Source: a phage. From it: a stretch of DNA of 56,700 nucleotides. Made by a program: the position numbers and the translations under genes. Positions 10,654 to 15,585 of this stretch are shown one piece after another. How positions within the stretch are numbered: the stretch's first letter is position 1; each line of letters opens with the position of its first letter. The notes under the pieces were generated by a model. It worked only from the letters and a program-made list of their open reading frames with translations. It was not told where the DNA came from and did not search any database. The stretch lies in sequence record PZ544694.1; one strand, given 5' to 3'.

Positions 10654-10938
10654 ATGAAAGAGAGTAATTTCCCATCGTGGGCGAAGAACAATAAAACGGG
10701 TCGACTTAAATTCATGATCCGGCATTTAGCCAGTTTCGCTTCGGAGGAGGGCCACCTAGTTTTCCTGTGCCGAGACGCTAAACTGTCGGTTCGTGGTGTC
10801 TCACAAGCAATCGACCGAGGAGAATTCACCTTTCAAATGGCGGATAAACTCGTTAAGGCTGCAAGCGTTGCTGGAAACCCGGACGTCACAGTTATGAACC
10901 TATTAAAACCTATGGAATCATTTAAAGAGGACAAATAA
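10654..10938 (+). CDS. hypothetical protein
   Basis: 94 aa frame-1 ORF upstream of primase-helicase; AAGAGGA Shine-Dalgarno-like motif at its 3' end precedes the next ATG. Confidence 0.35.
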   Translation: MKESNFPSWAKNNKTGRLKFMIRHLASFASEEGHLVFLCRDAKLSVRGVSQAIDRGEFTFQMADKLVKAASVAGNPDVTVMNLLKPMESFKEDK

Positions 10939-13614
10939 ATGTCTAACGTTTTCAAATCTCGTGGCCCTGAACTTTTCGACAATGGATACGAAGTCGTACC
11001 TATTACTCGTATCGACGCAACTGACAGCAAAGGGAAATTATTGTCTGGCGCGGGTAAAGCCCCGGCGTTAAAAGGGTGGCAGAAAATAGAGATCACTTCT
11101 GACATCGTTAATGAATGGGCGACGGGTAGTCGCTCTCGCTGTGGTGTGGGTATTCGTACCCACCGTAACCCTGCTGTCGATATCGACTGTTTAGACGCCG
11201 AAGCGTCAGAACACATGACGGCTTTCGTTGAGTCGGAAGTGGGCTTTGCTCCTATCCGTGTTGGGCGTGAACCTAAAGCGCTACTCCTCTATTATACAGA
11301 ACGTCCTTTCACAAAAGTAAAATCAACCATCTTCGTTGATGAAAACGGGAATGAAAACGCTGTCGAGATATTAGGAAGCGGGCAACAATTCGTTGCTTAC
11401 GGTATCCACCCGGGAACTAAGAAACCGTATAAATGGGTTACTAAAGGCGAGTCGCCTGCGGAAAACCAAGCGGATTTTGACCTTGAAGAAATCACACTAG
11501 AAGACGCGAGAAAAATTATTGCGGAATTCGACCGGTATGCGAAAGAGCGCGGTTGGAAACCTTTAAAAAGTAAAAGCGGTACGGTCATCAAGCCATCTTT
11601 GGGCTACTACTTAGATGCTCCGGAAGAACTATCAGACTGGTCGGACGAGTCGGACTTTGACGATGATGAAGACGATTGGGTCACTACTGATGATATCACC
11701 GATAAATGGGACGGTACTTACGAAGAACTTTACGAAATCTTCGAAAATGATATCGAACCATCTTACGATTACCACACTTGGATTCCTGTTCTGGCTGCAC
11801 TTAAAGACGCCGAACGTGAGCCGGACGAGTTTAAAGAGATCGCGAGAATGTGGTCTGCTCGGGCCGAGGAGTCTTTCGATAACGATGCCTTTGAAGATAA
11901 ATGGGAAAACGGTAATTTCAATCGTGTTGGTAAATACGCTAAGACATTACGAGGAGTAATTGCCGAAGCGGAAAAGATCCAAGGCGTTCGCGAAATTGAG
12001 GACGTAGTTATACCTTTATTCGAAAAAGCTACTGACTTGGCCGAGTGGACTTTAGCTGCCGACCGCCTACGTGAAACGTGGGCTTTCGGTTTAGAAAGAG
12101 AGACGGCCATAAACATTGCTTGCGAAAAGTATAAGAAAGTCACTAACGGGTTAAAACTTACGGACGTTCAAAAGAAACGATATCTTAGTATCGATTACTC
12201 TCTCTTTGACGCTCCCGAATGGTTGGCTCCTTGGGTTTATTGTACTACGGATAACGAGTTTATTAACTTAGACAATAGAACCAGAATGAACCCTAAATCT
12301 TTCGCGAATGCCTATAACCGAGAAACTGTGAAGAAATTCGGGGTAGCTGCGGACGTTTTCGCCACGGTTGAAAGACCCGTTCCTGTTATCCACGATACGA
12401 TGTATTACCCGTTGATGCACGGTGAGATGCCTAAGAACAAATGGAAGCGGGTTCCGGGTATTAATGACAAGCGTGTTTTCGAATACAACGGTTTGACGTT
12501 CTTAAATACCTTTGACCATCGTTCCATGCCTGAGACCGCAACAAAAATTTCGACCGCTGGATATAAGGCGATCGGGGAGGTAAAACGATACTTCGAAATA
12601 CAGTATCCAGATCCAGACGAACGAAGACATGCGATGGACTGGATCGCGTGGGTTATCAATAATCCTGTTAGAAAGATTAACTATATGCTTCTCGTTCTTG
12701 GTGGTCAGGGTTCCGGTAAAACCATCGTTAAGAAGTTTATGGAACACATGCTCGGCTCTGATAACGTCTCTACGATTTCGAATAAGGTTATCCATGGTAA
12801 TTTTACCGGGTGGCAGTCTGGTCACATGCTCAAAGTTATTGAGGAAATATCGGTGAGTGGTCATCGCTACGACGTTATGAACTCATTGAAAGAGCCGATA
12901 TCGAATGAAACGTTACAGATCGAAGCGAAGTACCGTGACCCACGCCAGTGTGTGAATACTTCGTCGTATATGGCATTTACCAATGATGTTGGTGCTTTGC
13001 CTCTTACATCAAGTGACCGTCGCTTCTTGTTAGTTCGTAGTGCGTTCCAGCACAAGCGTGAAGTCACTGAATACCTACGGAAAGACCCTAATTACTTTAA
13101 ACGGTTTGAGAAAGCCTTTACTAAACACGCACCGGAGATCCGCAAATGGTTTAGCGAGTGGGAGTATTCCGAGGGCTTCAAACACGATGGTAACGCTCCT
13201 GAAACGGTGAGTATGGGAAGCATGTCTTTAGCGTCAGAAGACGATTTCACCTCCGTAGTAATGGGGGCCGTAGATGATTGTGAGAAAGAGTTAGAATTTA
13301 CATCGGGGATCACAGACGAAGTAATTTTCATTCCATCGGCAGTAGATTTAGTCCGAGATAGGTCTAAGGTTCCTAACGGGAAAATAATATATCGCATACT
13401 CGCTGAATATGGTTTCTTCCGGCCTGTGGATTCTCGTACACAAATAAGATTTAATGACGTAAGAGGACAAGTTGTTGTCGCGAATAGACATAAATGGCTC
13501 TATCCTGATGGGAGTGTCAACGTAGATAAGATTAAAGAGCATTTAGAGGAGAACGAACGCCGGGTAGAAGAACAAGAAAGCAAGAGAGAGTTAGAAGAAA
13601 CTGACGTTTTCTAA
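10939..13614 (+). CDS. DNA primase-polymerase / SF3 helicase (PrimPol N-terminus, D5/P4-type helicase C-terminus)
   Basis: 891 aa; N-terminal GYEVVPI...GKAPALKGWQ PrimPol-like; Walker A LVLGGQGSGKT, Walker B-like region further C-terminal. Confidence 0.7.
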   Translation: MSNVFKSRGPELFDNGYEVVPITRIDATDSKGKLLSGAGKAPALKGWQKIEITSDIVNEWATGSRSRCGVGIRTHRNPAVDIDCLDAEASEHMTAFVESEVGFAPIRVGREPKALLLYYTERPFTKVKSTIFVDENGNENAVEILGSGQQFVAYGIHPGTKKPYKWVTKGESPAENQADFDLEEITLEDARKIIAEFDRYAKERGWKPLKSKSGTVIKPSLGYYLDAPEELSDWSDESDFDDDEDDWVTTDDITDKWDGTYEELYEIFENDIEPSYDYHTWIPVLAALKDAEREPDEFKEIARMWSARAEESFDNDAFEDKWENGNFNRVGKYAKTLRGVIAEAEKIQGVREIEDVVIPLFEKATDLAEWTLAADRLRETWAFGLERETAINIACEKYKKVTNGLKLTDVQKKRYLSIDYSLFDAPEWLAPWVYCTTDNEFINLDNRTRMNPKSFANAYNRETVKKFGVAADVFATVERPVPVIHDTMYYPLMHGEMPKNKWKRVPGINDKRVFEYNGLTFLNTFDHRSMPETATKISTAGYKAIGEVKRYFEIQYPDPDERRHAMDWIAWVINNPVRKINYMLLVLGGQGSGKTIVKKFMEHMLGSDNVSTISNKVIHGNFTGWQSGHMLKVIEEISVSGHRYDVMNSLKEPISNETLQIEAKYRDPRQCVNTSSYMAFTNDVGALPLTSSDRRFLLVRSAFQHKREVTEYLRKDPNYFKRFEKAFTKHAPEIRKWFSEWEYSEGFKHDGNAPETVSMGSMSLASEDDFTSVVMGAVDDCEKELEFTSGITDEVIFIPSAVDLVRDRSKVPNGKIIYRILAEYGFFRPVDSRTQIRFNDVRGQVVVANRHKWLYPDGSVNVDKIKEHLEENERRVEEQESKRELEETDVF

Positions 13615-14030
13615 ATGCACGTTTGGTCAAAAAATGAGCGTACAAAATTTATACAGAAAAACGTTCAATATTTAACCGATTTTCGGGTGATCGGATTTTT
13701 TGAGTGAGTGAATTTCCAATTTTTCATTTTTCCATTTTTTGGTCGAAAAACACCGAAAATGCTGTACAAATTTTATACAGGGTTTTTTGACACAAAGTGT
13801 GTCGGTCATGTGTTCCGACGTGTGCGTGCCAGTTAAATGTTGTACAAAAATCACCCAACACACATGATCGAATTACCTTTATATAGCTTATATATATATT
13901 TTTCTATTTTTCCTTTCCTATCTATTTTTTCTTTCTTCTGGAATTTCTATTTTATTATCTATTACTGTGTTTGCTGTGTCAGAAAGAAAGTAATATAGTT
14001 GCTGTGTCAGAAAGAAAGTAATATAGTAAA
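13615..14030. promoter_or_regulatory. AT-rich repeat-containing region, candidate origin or regulatory region
   Basis: Three copies of AATG-nn-GTACAAA-type motif at 13633-13656, 13757-13780, 13834-13853; T-tracts; 28-bp tandem repeat at 13972-14027; only very short ORFs. Confidence 0.35.
13972..14027. repeat. perfect 28-bp tandem direct repeat x2 (TGCTGTGTCAGAAAGAAAGTAATATAGT)
   Basis: Read directly: copy 1 at 13972-13999, copy 2 at 14000-14027. Confidence 0.9.
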
Positions 14031-14333
14031 AACAATAACTTACCTTGGAACACCTATTGGAACATCAGCCGGCACAGCAATTTCCTGTGACACACCACCA
14101 GCCATGGTAATACCTAAAACGGCGCATAACTATTTGATATTATTACGGAATTACCTAAAATACCGGTCATTACGGTAAATGATGTCCCCTATTGCTAAAG
14201 CCTGTGCGTCGCTCTCCGTGCTTTCTAGAGAAGAATCACTTTTAAATCGAAAAAGGTACTTGGACGAGTTGTCCGGTTGGGCGGGGGTGCGCAGAGCCGT
14301 CTTCCAGAAATTTGTCCGGGATCTGCCATAGAT

Positions 14334-14624
14334 GTTTGGGTGTTCGGGTGGGCGGTGTTGTGGGTTAGATGTGCTTCAAATTGTAAGCGTGTGCGATTGT
14401 GCGAGGCGATCGCGGTGTTAGTTGTCGGTCGTATCCGTTGAGCGGGGGTATAGCGCCTCGGGTGAACACGCCGATCGGGAACGTCGTTTTTACGTTTTGT
14501 GCGGGTGTTCGGGTGTGCGGTTGTACCGCATGACGTTTTTACAAATATAAATGCGGTCGCGCCAGCGCCTACCCACCCAACACCACCACCCCAAGCCCTC
14601 ACTCTCCCCCATTCCCCCCCACCC
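14334..14624. repeat. G-rich imperfect direct repeats followed by a C-rich tract
   Basis: GGGTGTTCGGGTG-type motif at 14334-14366 and 14494-14528; C-rich tract about 14566-14624 (CCCACCCAACACCACCACCCC...). Confidence 0.6.
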
Positions 14625-14766
14625 TATGGAAAATTGCCGTAAAGCCATGTGTTGCGTCCTCAGCGTGTTTTGCCCGCTAGGTAAGGCCGATGTATTACCT
14701 ACGATGAGTTATGCCCGTGTGGTTCGATTGAGGGCGGAAGACGGCGCTTTGTTTGTTCCGACTTAA

Positions 14767-15006
14767 ATGAGCATTCTCAAGATGCTACTCTCCGGTGTGT
14801 ACAACGTGGGCGCCGTGTGTTTCTTCGGCCTAATTTCGATTTATATTCTCTCGTTCTTTTTCCGCGCCCTACAAAACCACGGTTTCGACGGTCTACACCG
14901 CACTACGTTAGTTCTCGAATCAATCGGCGCTATCATGATGGTCGTCTTCATGGTTTGCGTTGCGATCTTGGTGTTCGCCGGAGGCGTCGCCCTAACAATC
15001 CGGTAG
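14767..15006 (+). CDS. small hydrophobic membrane protein, hypothetical
   Basis: 79 aa, two or three predicted TM helices (VCFFGLISIYILSFFF; IMMVVFMVCVAILVFAGGVAL). Confidence 0.4.
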   Translation: MSILKMLLSGVYNVGAVCFFGLISIYILSFFFRALQNHGFDGLHRTTLVLESIGAIMMVVFMVCVAILVFAGGVALTIR

Positions 15007-15585
15007 ATGAGTTGTAACTGTTTCGATCGTATTCAAAAATCGATGGCTGATCGGGTGGCCGGTAAGTTGCCGAACGGCGCAATAATACACTCGGCGGAGT
15101 GGAAAACAGAAGTGTTAGCTATTGAAAATAAAAAGTTGAAAACCCGATATTTTCTAGACTTCACCATAGAGTATCAAGAGCGTAGACCGGACGGGACGCT
15201 CTACTCGACGGTAACAAAATCTGATTTTCCTGTGTTTATGAATTATTGCCCGTTCTGTGGCGTAAAGTTCGAGGAGGACGAACAAACTCAGGATCAGGAA
15301 GACCGTTTTAAATTCCCTGCGCTAGTCTACGTCAAAAATGGAAAAGACCCCATCGCACACACGGGGGCAACGTTACAACGAAGTGGGACAGAACACCCTC
15401 GCGGAATGTTTGCGGAGTACGTGAACGTGCGAACCAATGAGCGGATTTACTTTTCTGAGTCGTTGATGTCCTCCCGCCTAGACGGTGGCGATTACGTCGA
15501 GATCCCCGACGACTGGGAACAACTCAGCGACTATTGCCAGAAAGACATAATCGCAGAACGAAAAGCACGAGGCGGTCGAAAATGA
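15007..15585 (+). CDS. hypothetical protein with Cys pairs (CNC...CPFC)
   Basis: 192 aa frame-1 ORF; possible zinc-ribbon cysteines. Confidence 0.45.
   Translation: MSCNCFDRIQKSMADRVAGKLPNGAIIHSAEWKTEVLAIENKKLKTRYFLDFTIEYQERRPDGTLYSTVTKSDFPVFMNYCPFCGVKFEEDEQTQDQEDRFKFPALVYVKNGKDPIAHTGATLQRSGTEHPRGMFAEYVNVRTNERIYFSESLMSSRLDGGDYVEIPDDWEQLSDYCQKDIIAERKARGGRK

Follow-up and report, generated by a model that had tools for sequence, protein, structure and literature searches.

What the repeat-bearing, AT-rich DNA behind the primase-helicase gene of a chi-like phage does is the question raised by positions 13615-14030 of the window, the whole 56,700-nucleotide stretch of phage DNA analyzed here (record PZ544694.1). 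The initial annotation had proposed an origin of replication or an early regulatory region at this site. An origin next to the primase-helicase gene is still the best-supported reading, but the grounds for it are a set of hexamers and an AT-rich tract, not the repeats first listed. E21 ~13997-14310 (window ~13789-14094) may be the lytic replication origin of Escherichia phage E21, helped by the host proteins Fis and IHF, a reading given a rough probability of 0.45.

The window is a concatenation of predicted coding sequences (CDSs) of E21, each written in its coding-strand orientation, with intergenic DNA omitted and overlaps written twice. Its 56,700 bases are tiled gaplessly in one reading frame by 85 open reading frames (ORFs), each opening with ATG, GTG, or TTG right behind the preceding stop codon, and the window is therefore not natural DNA. 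A similarity search identified E21 (NC_052983.1/MN604053.1; 58,536 bp; Casjensviridae, Lavrentievavirus) as the source at 99.9% identity, and the construction follows from the exact match of 48 of the 49 pieces in window 1-26211 to one or the other E21 strand. The earlier caution that short ORFs tile the stretch and that separately oriented pieces may have been joined thus extends to the entire window. Features that cross piece boundaries may be artefacts and intergenic features are absent; in such windows overlapping gene calls create false tandem repeats, and intergenic terminators and binding sites are hidden. The perfect 28-bp tandem repeat that had been reported is a case in point. Tandem Repeats Finder detects a 2 × 28-bp array at window 13971-14027 and none in the natural E21 genome, which has no head-to-tail copies. 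The array was created when two called ORFs that share 28 nt, E21 14078-14239 and 14212-14391, were joined end to end. Such an overlapping ORF pair is annotated in the Salmonella phage SD-13_S19 record.

The studied stretch corresponds to E21 13830-14240 and lies in a 1.4-kb zone (E21 13751-15160) where RefSeq annotates no CDS, between the end of the primase gene at 13750 (plus strand) and the start of gp12 at 15161 (minus strand). The zone sits between convergent terminators. The stretch had been placed directly after the primase-helicase gene; it does follow that gene, but 79 natural bases are missing from the window between the two, and these carry a strong intrinsic terminator (-16.7 kcal/mol, z = -4.9, followed by six U). 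On the other side lies the cohesive-end site. E21 14499-14510 reads GCTCTGCGCACC, the reverse complement of 5'-GGTGCGCAGAGC, the 12-base cohesive end determined for phage chi (PMC4342425), and chi-like phages of Proteus have the same cohesive ends as chi (PMC9022528). Several relatives' records begin or stop exactly at cosN. The studied stretch is 260-670 bp from the left cohesive end, and the E21 terminase genes are more than 10 kb from cos, as in chi.

The short ORFs that tile this stretch (30, 42, 53, and 59 amino acids) come from a gene caller, and similar ones are annotated in four Salmonella-phage records (SD-11 to SD-14), which place five plus-strand ORFs in the zone. RefSeq and most submitters annotate no gene there, and others place different ORFs on the minus strand, so the small-ORF annotations are mutually incompatible. 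Nine of 12 genomes lack the ATG of the 53-residue ORF, frameshifts occur in two, and the 59-residue ORF has a premature stop in pPM_01. Translated comparison gave the small ORFs no counterpart in Kokobel1, Saba, or chi, and none of them matches a PHROG family. It is most improbable that these ORFs are real genes to whose coding sequence the repeats are incidental. A four-genus alignment shows short conserved blocks between indel-rich spacers, the pattern that is characteristic of cis-acting DNA. The origin proposal was to fall if the repeats lay inside well-supported genes; the zone holds no RefSeq CDS and its small ORFs are not conserved, and the proposal stands on this count.

Between the terminator and cosN, a span of 697 bp, five copies of the hexamer GRCACA are found against 0.49 expected, making this the densest cluster in the genome, and it is absent from both divergent promoter regions of E21. 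Two copies lie to the left and three to the right (E21 14216 on the minus strand, 14284 and 14302 on the plus strand) of an AT tract at 14113-14200, and both orientations are represented. The AT-richest 200-bp window of the E21 genome is 14056-14255 (76% AT), and an AT/TA/CA-rich center is found at the same place in all relatives examined. The order of terminator, repeats, AT center, repeats, and cos block is found in Kokobel1, Saba, L063, L064, JC01, L066, L067, chi, and vB_C4, and the repeats themselves are lineage-specific: GACACA(GTA), GTGACAC, GTCCCAC, GTTACA, or GTTGCA. Sites and layout recur at matching offsets where the primases are only 45-76% identical to that of E21. By this comparison the GRCACA hexamers appear to be a better iteron candidate than the motif emphasized in the initial annotation.

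The candidate initiator is the product of the adjacent gene. The primase-helicase gp11 contains Prim-Pol, PriCT_2, and DUF5906 helicase domains (Pfam), is classed as a DNA primase by PHROG, and ends in a C-terminal domain of ~190 residues. In an AlphaFold2 model of residues 640-891, a winged-helix-like unit (H-b-H-H-b-b) is predicted in this C-terminal part with a pLDDT >90. In 7 of 7 aligned lineages of the GACACA clade the predicted wing carries the motif RxQxRxNGxRG, which differs in the four lineages with other repeats, a co-variation that is suggestive. A homologue search with the C-terminal fragment alone returned nothing; the full-length query did find homologues. In the proposed mechanism, the C-terminal domain would bind the GRCACA hexamers that flank the AT-richest tract, and the helicase would load itself there. 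The tract would then melt and the Prim-Pol domain would prime synthesis. Fis, a bending protein, bound at the GTACAAAWTTTATAC copies described below, together with the adjacent IHF site, would shape the DNA and couple initiation to the growth state of the host. Sequence architecture, enrichment over chance, and cross-lineage conservation are the observations from which we infer the binding partners and the origin activity.

An experimentally defined origin of similar design is that of the Staphylococcus aureus pathogenicity islands (SaPIs), in which an AT-rich center immediately downstream of rep is flanked by penta- or hexanucleotide iterons that the C-terminal winged helix of a self-loading helicase binds, with SaPI5 encoding a Pri-Rep fusion (PMC9371898). 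As in these islands and other phage-inducible chromosomal islands (SaPI/PICI), the E21 hexamers flank an AT-rich center with at least two copies per side in opposite orientations, and they lie downstream of the proposed initiator gene. The first hexamer is 250 bp past the gp11 stop, and only the terminator and a Fis-type cluster intervene; in vB_C4 the corresponding region is upstream of the cassette instead. Like SaPI5, E21 has a fused primase-helicase, for whose C-terminal domain a winged-helix-like fold is predicted. The differences are that E21 has only five hexamers over ~300 bp in a module ~250 bp past the stop, behind the terminator and the Fis cluster; that its helicase domain is of the DUF5906/D5 type rather than the SaPI Rep type; and that it is a lytic cos phage whose candidate region abuts cos. 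A second parallel is phage P4, where primase, helicase, and a C-terminal origin-binding winged helix are combined in the alpha protein and the octamer TGTTCACC is repeated in two separate regions, ori and crr. E21 shares with P4 a one-polypeptide candidate initiator and short repeated sites in a cis-acting region beside the gene; the alpha primase fold differs, and the P4 octamers are divided between two regions. By analogy, the E21 site would be a new member of a known origin type, SaPI/P4-like with a self-loading primase-helicase. If confirmed, SaPI-type self-loading initiator logic would extend to a family of lytic cos phages. Several Casjensviridae are under test as therapy phages against Proteus, Salmonella, and Klebsiella, and a defined candidate makes the origin directly testable and flags a possible dependence on host Fis and IHF.

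The motif that had first drawn attention to the stretch is real in part. Of its three reported copies, the first two are full GTACAAAWTTTATAC copies, the only ones in the natural 58.5-kb genome, and the third is only a half-site (TGTACAAA). The AATG assigned to the third copy spans a splice point (13836|13837) at which the window lacks 30 natural bases, and the natural sequence at that position is ATACTG in 9 of 12 related genomes. With up to two mismatches allowed, the pattern matches five times in the window (shuffle mean 0.48; 0 of 100 shuffles reach five). The full copies are 15-19-bp near-palindromes (CTGTA-N9-TACAG) 120 bp apart, and the half-site lies 108 bp further on. A classical lambda or plasmid iteron array consists of at least four direct repeats of ~17-22 bp with a spacing of ~20 bp. 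Two near-palindromes and a half-site do not form such an array, and the description as iteron-like gives way to a match with the Fis consensus. An RNA hairpin or terminator reading of the copies was also rejected (energies of 0 and -5.6 kcal/mol), and a text search for the motif string returned unrelated primer hits only.

The 15-bp core of the Fis consensus is GNtYAaWWWtTRaNC (PMC2816674), and copies 1 and 2 and two further sites contain it. The strict form GNNYAWWWWWTRNNC has five sites in the genome, four of them in the zone (E21 13840, 13855, 13878, and 13975), against a mean of 0.04-0.08 in shuffles of the region that preserve dinucleotides. The relaxed form GNNYRWWWWWYRNNC has eight genome sites, five of them in the zone (the strict four and 14083; shuffle mean 0.12-0.20). 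The exact IHF consensus WATCAANNNNTTR places three of its five genome sites in the zone (E21 14045, 14340, and 14442; shuffle mean 0.1). None of 1000 shuffles reaches the strict Fis count, and fewer than 1 in 1000 reaches the IHF count. In five lineages, Fis-like sites of differing sequence lie between +100 and +250 from the primase stop; those syntenic to copy 2 read GTACGTTTTTTGTAC in both Kokobel1 and L062, and GTTCATTTTTTAGGC in Saba. Retention of the consensus positions while the others drift is what would be expected under selection for a degenerate host-factor site, and the motif copies are probably host Fis sites. The Fis-type cluster is absent from chi, Salado, MA11, vB_C4, AH2, Suzuki, R16L, and L064-L067. 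Kokobel1 has three IHF-consensus sites with offsets and orientations matching those of E21. The two cos-proximal IHF sites have counterparts in chi and Salado no more than 170 bp from the end, and they probably belong to cos.

These counts bear on whether the zone is a functionless spacer in which AT-rich sequence has produced the motifs by chance. A high AT content does raise the number of matches to AT-rich consensus sequences, and within-genus divergence of the region (2-3%) is similar to that of the primase gene, hence no sign of extra constraint. Divergence rises to 16-18% at E21 14311-14497, which looks like a two-haplotype mosaic and is uninformative on constraint. A spacer is nevertheless very unlikely: 4-5 Fis-type and 3 IHF-type sites are present where the shuffles give 0.04-0.2 and 0.1, and both sites and layout return at corresponding offsets in genera with primases as diverged as noted above.

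The palindrome has a second setting. The 19-mer YTGTACAAAAWTTRTACAG is present in 2-5 copies in pelagiphage-like IMG/VR contigs (GC ~0.35), and the array lies just upstream of the small-terminase (TerS) gene in L011 and L014, the two contigs examined. A shared protein as the explanation was rejected: tblastn of all E21 proteins against the stored parts of the contigs gave no match. The E21 TerS (PHROG 141, DUF1441) and the pelagiphage TerS (PHROG 2538) are unrelated and do not align. The sharing of the 19-mer may reflect convergence, chance, or a shared binder.

These arrays, the cosN site 260-670 bp away, the enrichment of IHF-consensus sites, and the way the region travels with cos even in vB_C4, where the primase cassette is inverted, speak for a packaging accessory region like lambda cosB. 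The hexamers and/or palindromes would then bind TerS, and bending by IHF and Fis would organize the left chromosome end for cleavage at cos and packaging initiation; IHF and HU assist lambda terminase at cos. E21 resembles lambda cos in its 12-nt cohesive end, IHF-consensus sites within ~170 bp of cosN, and conserved flanking DNA. Lambda cosB, however, is within ~150 bp of cosN, whereas the E21 repeats are 200-670 bp away, beyond the cos-flanking segment, with the terminase genes >10 kb distant. Also against a packaging role is that the pelagiphage TerS is unrelated to that of E21. The DNA conserved between E21 and chi hugs cosN (~70 bp on its left and ~170 bp on its right), and the hexamers differ (GRCACA and GTTACA). 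The proteins diverge in parallel: TerS is 57% identical between the two phages (~80% at the N-terminus, its DNA-binding region) and the large terminase TerL 62%, whereas the primase C-terminus, the most diverged part of that protein, is 22-32% identical. Conserved terminase proteins thus pair with conserved DNA and a diverged primase C-terminus with diverged repeats, which indirectly favors replication over packaging because the hexamers change alongside the primase and the cos flanks stay with TerS and TerL. The repeats are not conserved between phages with similar TerS. A packaging accessory region is unlikely.

Transcriptional control is unlikely as the function of the site. A promoter in the AT-rich zone would then be controlled through the palindromes, acting as operators or as Fis upstream-activating sites. 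One candidate, directed leftward at E21 14223-14195, could yield an antisense or non-coding RNA, or else a transcript serving as primer or activator. Alternatively, the site could be the remnant of a regulatory module. In chi this module carries gp1, a syntenic gene of the Xre helix-turn-helix type, with a palindrome (ATAACAAATTTGTTAT) whose half-site resembles the E21 motif. A 10-of-12 match to a sigma-70 promoter (CTGACA-17-GATAAT) at E21 14223-14195 on the minus strand is a possible promoter, and strong promoters such as rrnB P1 typically have Fis sites clustered upstream. Promoter-like matches number 3, however, against 2.6 in shuffles, and a real divergent promoter region of E21 has 11-of-12 and 10-of-12 matches. 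The zone is enclosed by two convergent terminators and holds no conserved gene for a promoter to serve. E21 lacks a gp1 homologue, the Rfam search gave no hits, and the motif copies form no stable RNA hairpins. A regulatory role, alone or coupled to initiation, is possible. Clusters of Fis and IHF sites occur at oriC or upstream of stable-RNA promoters, and E21 resembles these in having several consensus Fis sites and an IHF site beside an AT-rich unwinding-type tract. Unlike oriC, the zone has no DnaA boxes beyond chance (a single 8-of-9 match) and GATC is not enriched in it; no strong promoter lies downstream.

Several points weigh against a replication origin at E21 ~13997-14310. The hexamer, one of whose positions is degenerate, makes a weak motif, and its five copies are few. 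The co-variation of wing and hexamer is confounded by phylogeny. Matches to the Fis consensus predict affinity poorly (PMC2816674). The identical 19-mer is arrayed in the pelagiphage-like contigs; the SAR11 hosts of pelagiphages are not known to have Fis, and the palindrome could therefore bind a phage protein instead. The region is always beside cos and the primase cassette, including in vB_C4, and synteny therefore cannot separate replication from packaging. The literature searched yielded no paper on an origin in a chi-like phage (Casjensviridae). GC skew, which the initial annotation had suggested as a check, is no help: it is positive almost everywhere in the window because all pieces are in coding-strand orientation, and it is uninformative in the natural genome because it follows gene direction.

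In chi (L006 520-613), gp1 is located in the interval from the primase gene to cos, the position taken in E21 by the Fis-type cluster, and upstream of gp1 are the perfect 16-bp palindrome and a second related site. A gp1 homologue was not found in E21, Kokobel1, or Saba. That the Fis-site cluster replaces the gp1 regulator and its operators in chi-like phages of Proteus and Providencia (Lavrentievavirus, Kokobelvirus, Saba, and two uncultured lineages) is a speculative and quite improbable reading. If it were true, control of origin firing or of the chromosome end would have passed from a phage repressor to a host protein that depends on growth phase, and the phage would replicate fully only in fast-growing, Fis-rich cells.

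Table 1. Window pieces, sites, and repeats of the zone between the primase gene and cosN, with counterparts in related phages. Signed positions are offsets from the primase stop of the phage named.
Feature	Window	E21 or other record	Strand	Remark
Piece, primase-helicase gp11	10939-13614	11075-13750	+	Proposed initiator
Piece	13615-13707	13830-13922	+	79 nt lost ahead
Piece	13708-13836	13919-14047	+	4-nt overlap doubled
Piece	13837-13998	14078-14239	+	30 nt lost ahead
Piece	13999-14178	14212-14391	+	28-nt overlap doubled
Piece	14179-14331	14465-14617	-	Reverse-complemented
Junction	13704-13711			GTGA overlap of two called ORFs written twice
Junction	13834-13836	14048-14077		30 bases lost; cuts IHF-consensus site TAACGTGTTGATT
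Fis-consensus 15-mer GGTCAAAAAATGAGC	13625-13639	Within 13840-13892		
Motif copy 1, Fis-consensus 15-mer GTACAAAATTTATAC	13640-13654	13855-13869		Within 13840-13892
Fis-consensus 15-mer GTTCAATATTTAACC	13663-13677	Within 13840-13892		
T-run cluster	13713-13739	13924-13950		8-nt period, TTTCCATT × 3.4
Motif copy 2 GTACAAATTTTATAC	13764-13778	13975-13989		Fis-consensus; invariant in 12 Lavrentievavirus genomes
Left hexamers GACACA aag TGTGTC	13789-13803	14000-14014; 14000(+), 14009(-)	+/-	Inverted pair; candidate iterons
IHF-consensus site TAACGTGTTGATT		14045-14057	-	In block conserved across genera
Motif copy 3 GTACAAAAATCACCC	13842-13856	14083		Relaxed Fis consensus only; not conserved in other genera
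AT-richest tract	13872-13959	14113-14200		88% AT in peak 40-bp window; proposed unwinding element
Hexamer TGTGTC	13975-13980 and 14003-14008	14216-14221		Real; appears twice in the window
Right hexamer GGCACA	14071-14076	14284	+	Span of both right hexamers, 14284-14307
Right hexamer GACACA	14089-14094	14302	+	
IHF-consensus site TATCAAATAGTTA	14127-14139	14340-14352	-	Cos-proximal segment
cosN 12-mer GGTGCGCAGAGC	14286-14297	14499-14510	+	Reverse-complemented in window; beyond studied stretch
21-mer, copy 1		13807-13827		Outside window
21-mer, copy 2	In piece 14422-14550	14787-14807		Reversed; partial third at E21 14390
Relaxed-Fis sites		Kokobel1 +104, +235		GTACAAAAATTGAAC; GTACGTTTTTTGTAC
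Relaxed-Fis sites		L062 +114, +244		GTACAAAAAACGTAC; GTACGTTTTTTGTAC; 74% primase identity
Relaxed-Fis sites		Saba +105, +129, +147, +247		GGTCATTTTTTAACC; GCTCATTTTTTAACC; GATTAATTAATAGGC; GTTCATTTTTTAGGC
Relaxed-Fis sites		L063 +122, +138		GGTTATTTTTTGTAC; GGTTAATTTTTGACC; 57% primase identity
Repeat GRCACA		Kokobel1, Saba		Flanks AT-rich center, layout as in E21
Repeat GACACA × 3		L063		Contig ends at AT-rich tract, before right-hand side
Repeat GACACAGTA × 7		L064		
Repeat GACACAC		JC01		
Repeat GTGACAC × 10		L066		
Repeat GTCCCAC		L067		
Repeat GTTACA × 10		chi		All between gp1 and cos
Repeat GTTGCA		vB_C4		
19-mer contigs		L011 4740-4960; L014 2280-2510; L013 5678-5713		
Further 19-mer contigs		L016, L021, L030, L035, L036, L038, L040, L041		

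The T-rich phased tracts that had been described hold up as T-runs and as high AT content; the phasing does not. The periodicity is ~8 nt rather than 10.5 and no stronger than in shuffles (P = 0.27), and helical phasing was rejected. Kokobel1 and Saba have a T-run cluster comparable to that of E21. In the metagenomic relatives L062 and L063 the assemblies stop 315-360 bp past the primase stop, at the AT-rich tract and not at cos, which suggests that this tract breaks assemblies. The short flank available for L062, which is counted in the GACACA clade, showed no hexamer.

A 50-residue ORF at window 14179-14331 (E21 14465-14617, minus strand) spans cosN and is broken in linear virion DNA. It is almost certainly not a gene, and its apparent conservation in Kokobel1 (E = 1e-11) arises because cos DNA is conserved. 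To the right of cosN (window 14332-14550; E21 14618-14856, reversed) the sequence is GC-rich, with 8-nt tandem units (CACCCAAA and ACACCCGC) and repeats of the type ACCGCxCACCCGAACACCC. The first ~170 bp on this side are conserved in Kokobel1 and chi, which makes them candidate terminase-recognition DNA, and the short ORFs called at window 14332-14550 are probably spurious too. The 21-mer AAAAACGACGyTCCCGATCGG forms a direct repeat, 20 of 21 positions identical and 980 bp apart, that brackets the AT-rich zone and cos.

The gene for gp10 (window 10654-10938; 94 residues) abuts the primase gene, with a one-base overlap in E21 and a four-base overlap in chi, and lies upstream of the primase gene in every relative examined. 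The protein is a weak homologue (29% identity) of chi gp3, annotated as a transcriptional regulator, and could be a co-initiator or a regulator. In Aeromonas phage vB_C4 (L056 577-1439) the regulator-primase cassette is inverted relative to cos, and the repeat-bearing, AT-rich region is upstream of the cassette. The records of Staphylococcus phage SVV09-A, Enterococcus phage AS-M1_NWU, and Pseudomonas phage E21 share ~95% identity with Proteus phages in this region, and their host labels look doubtful.

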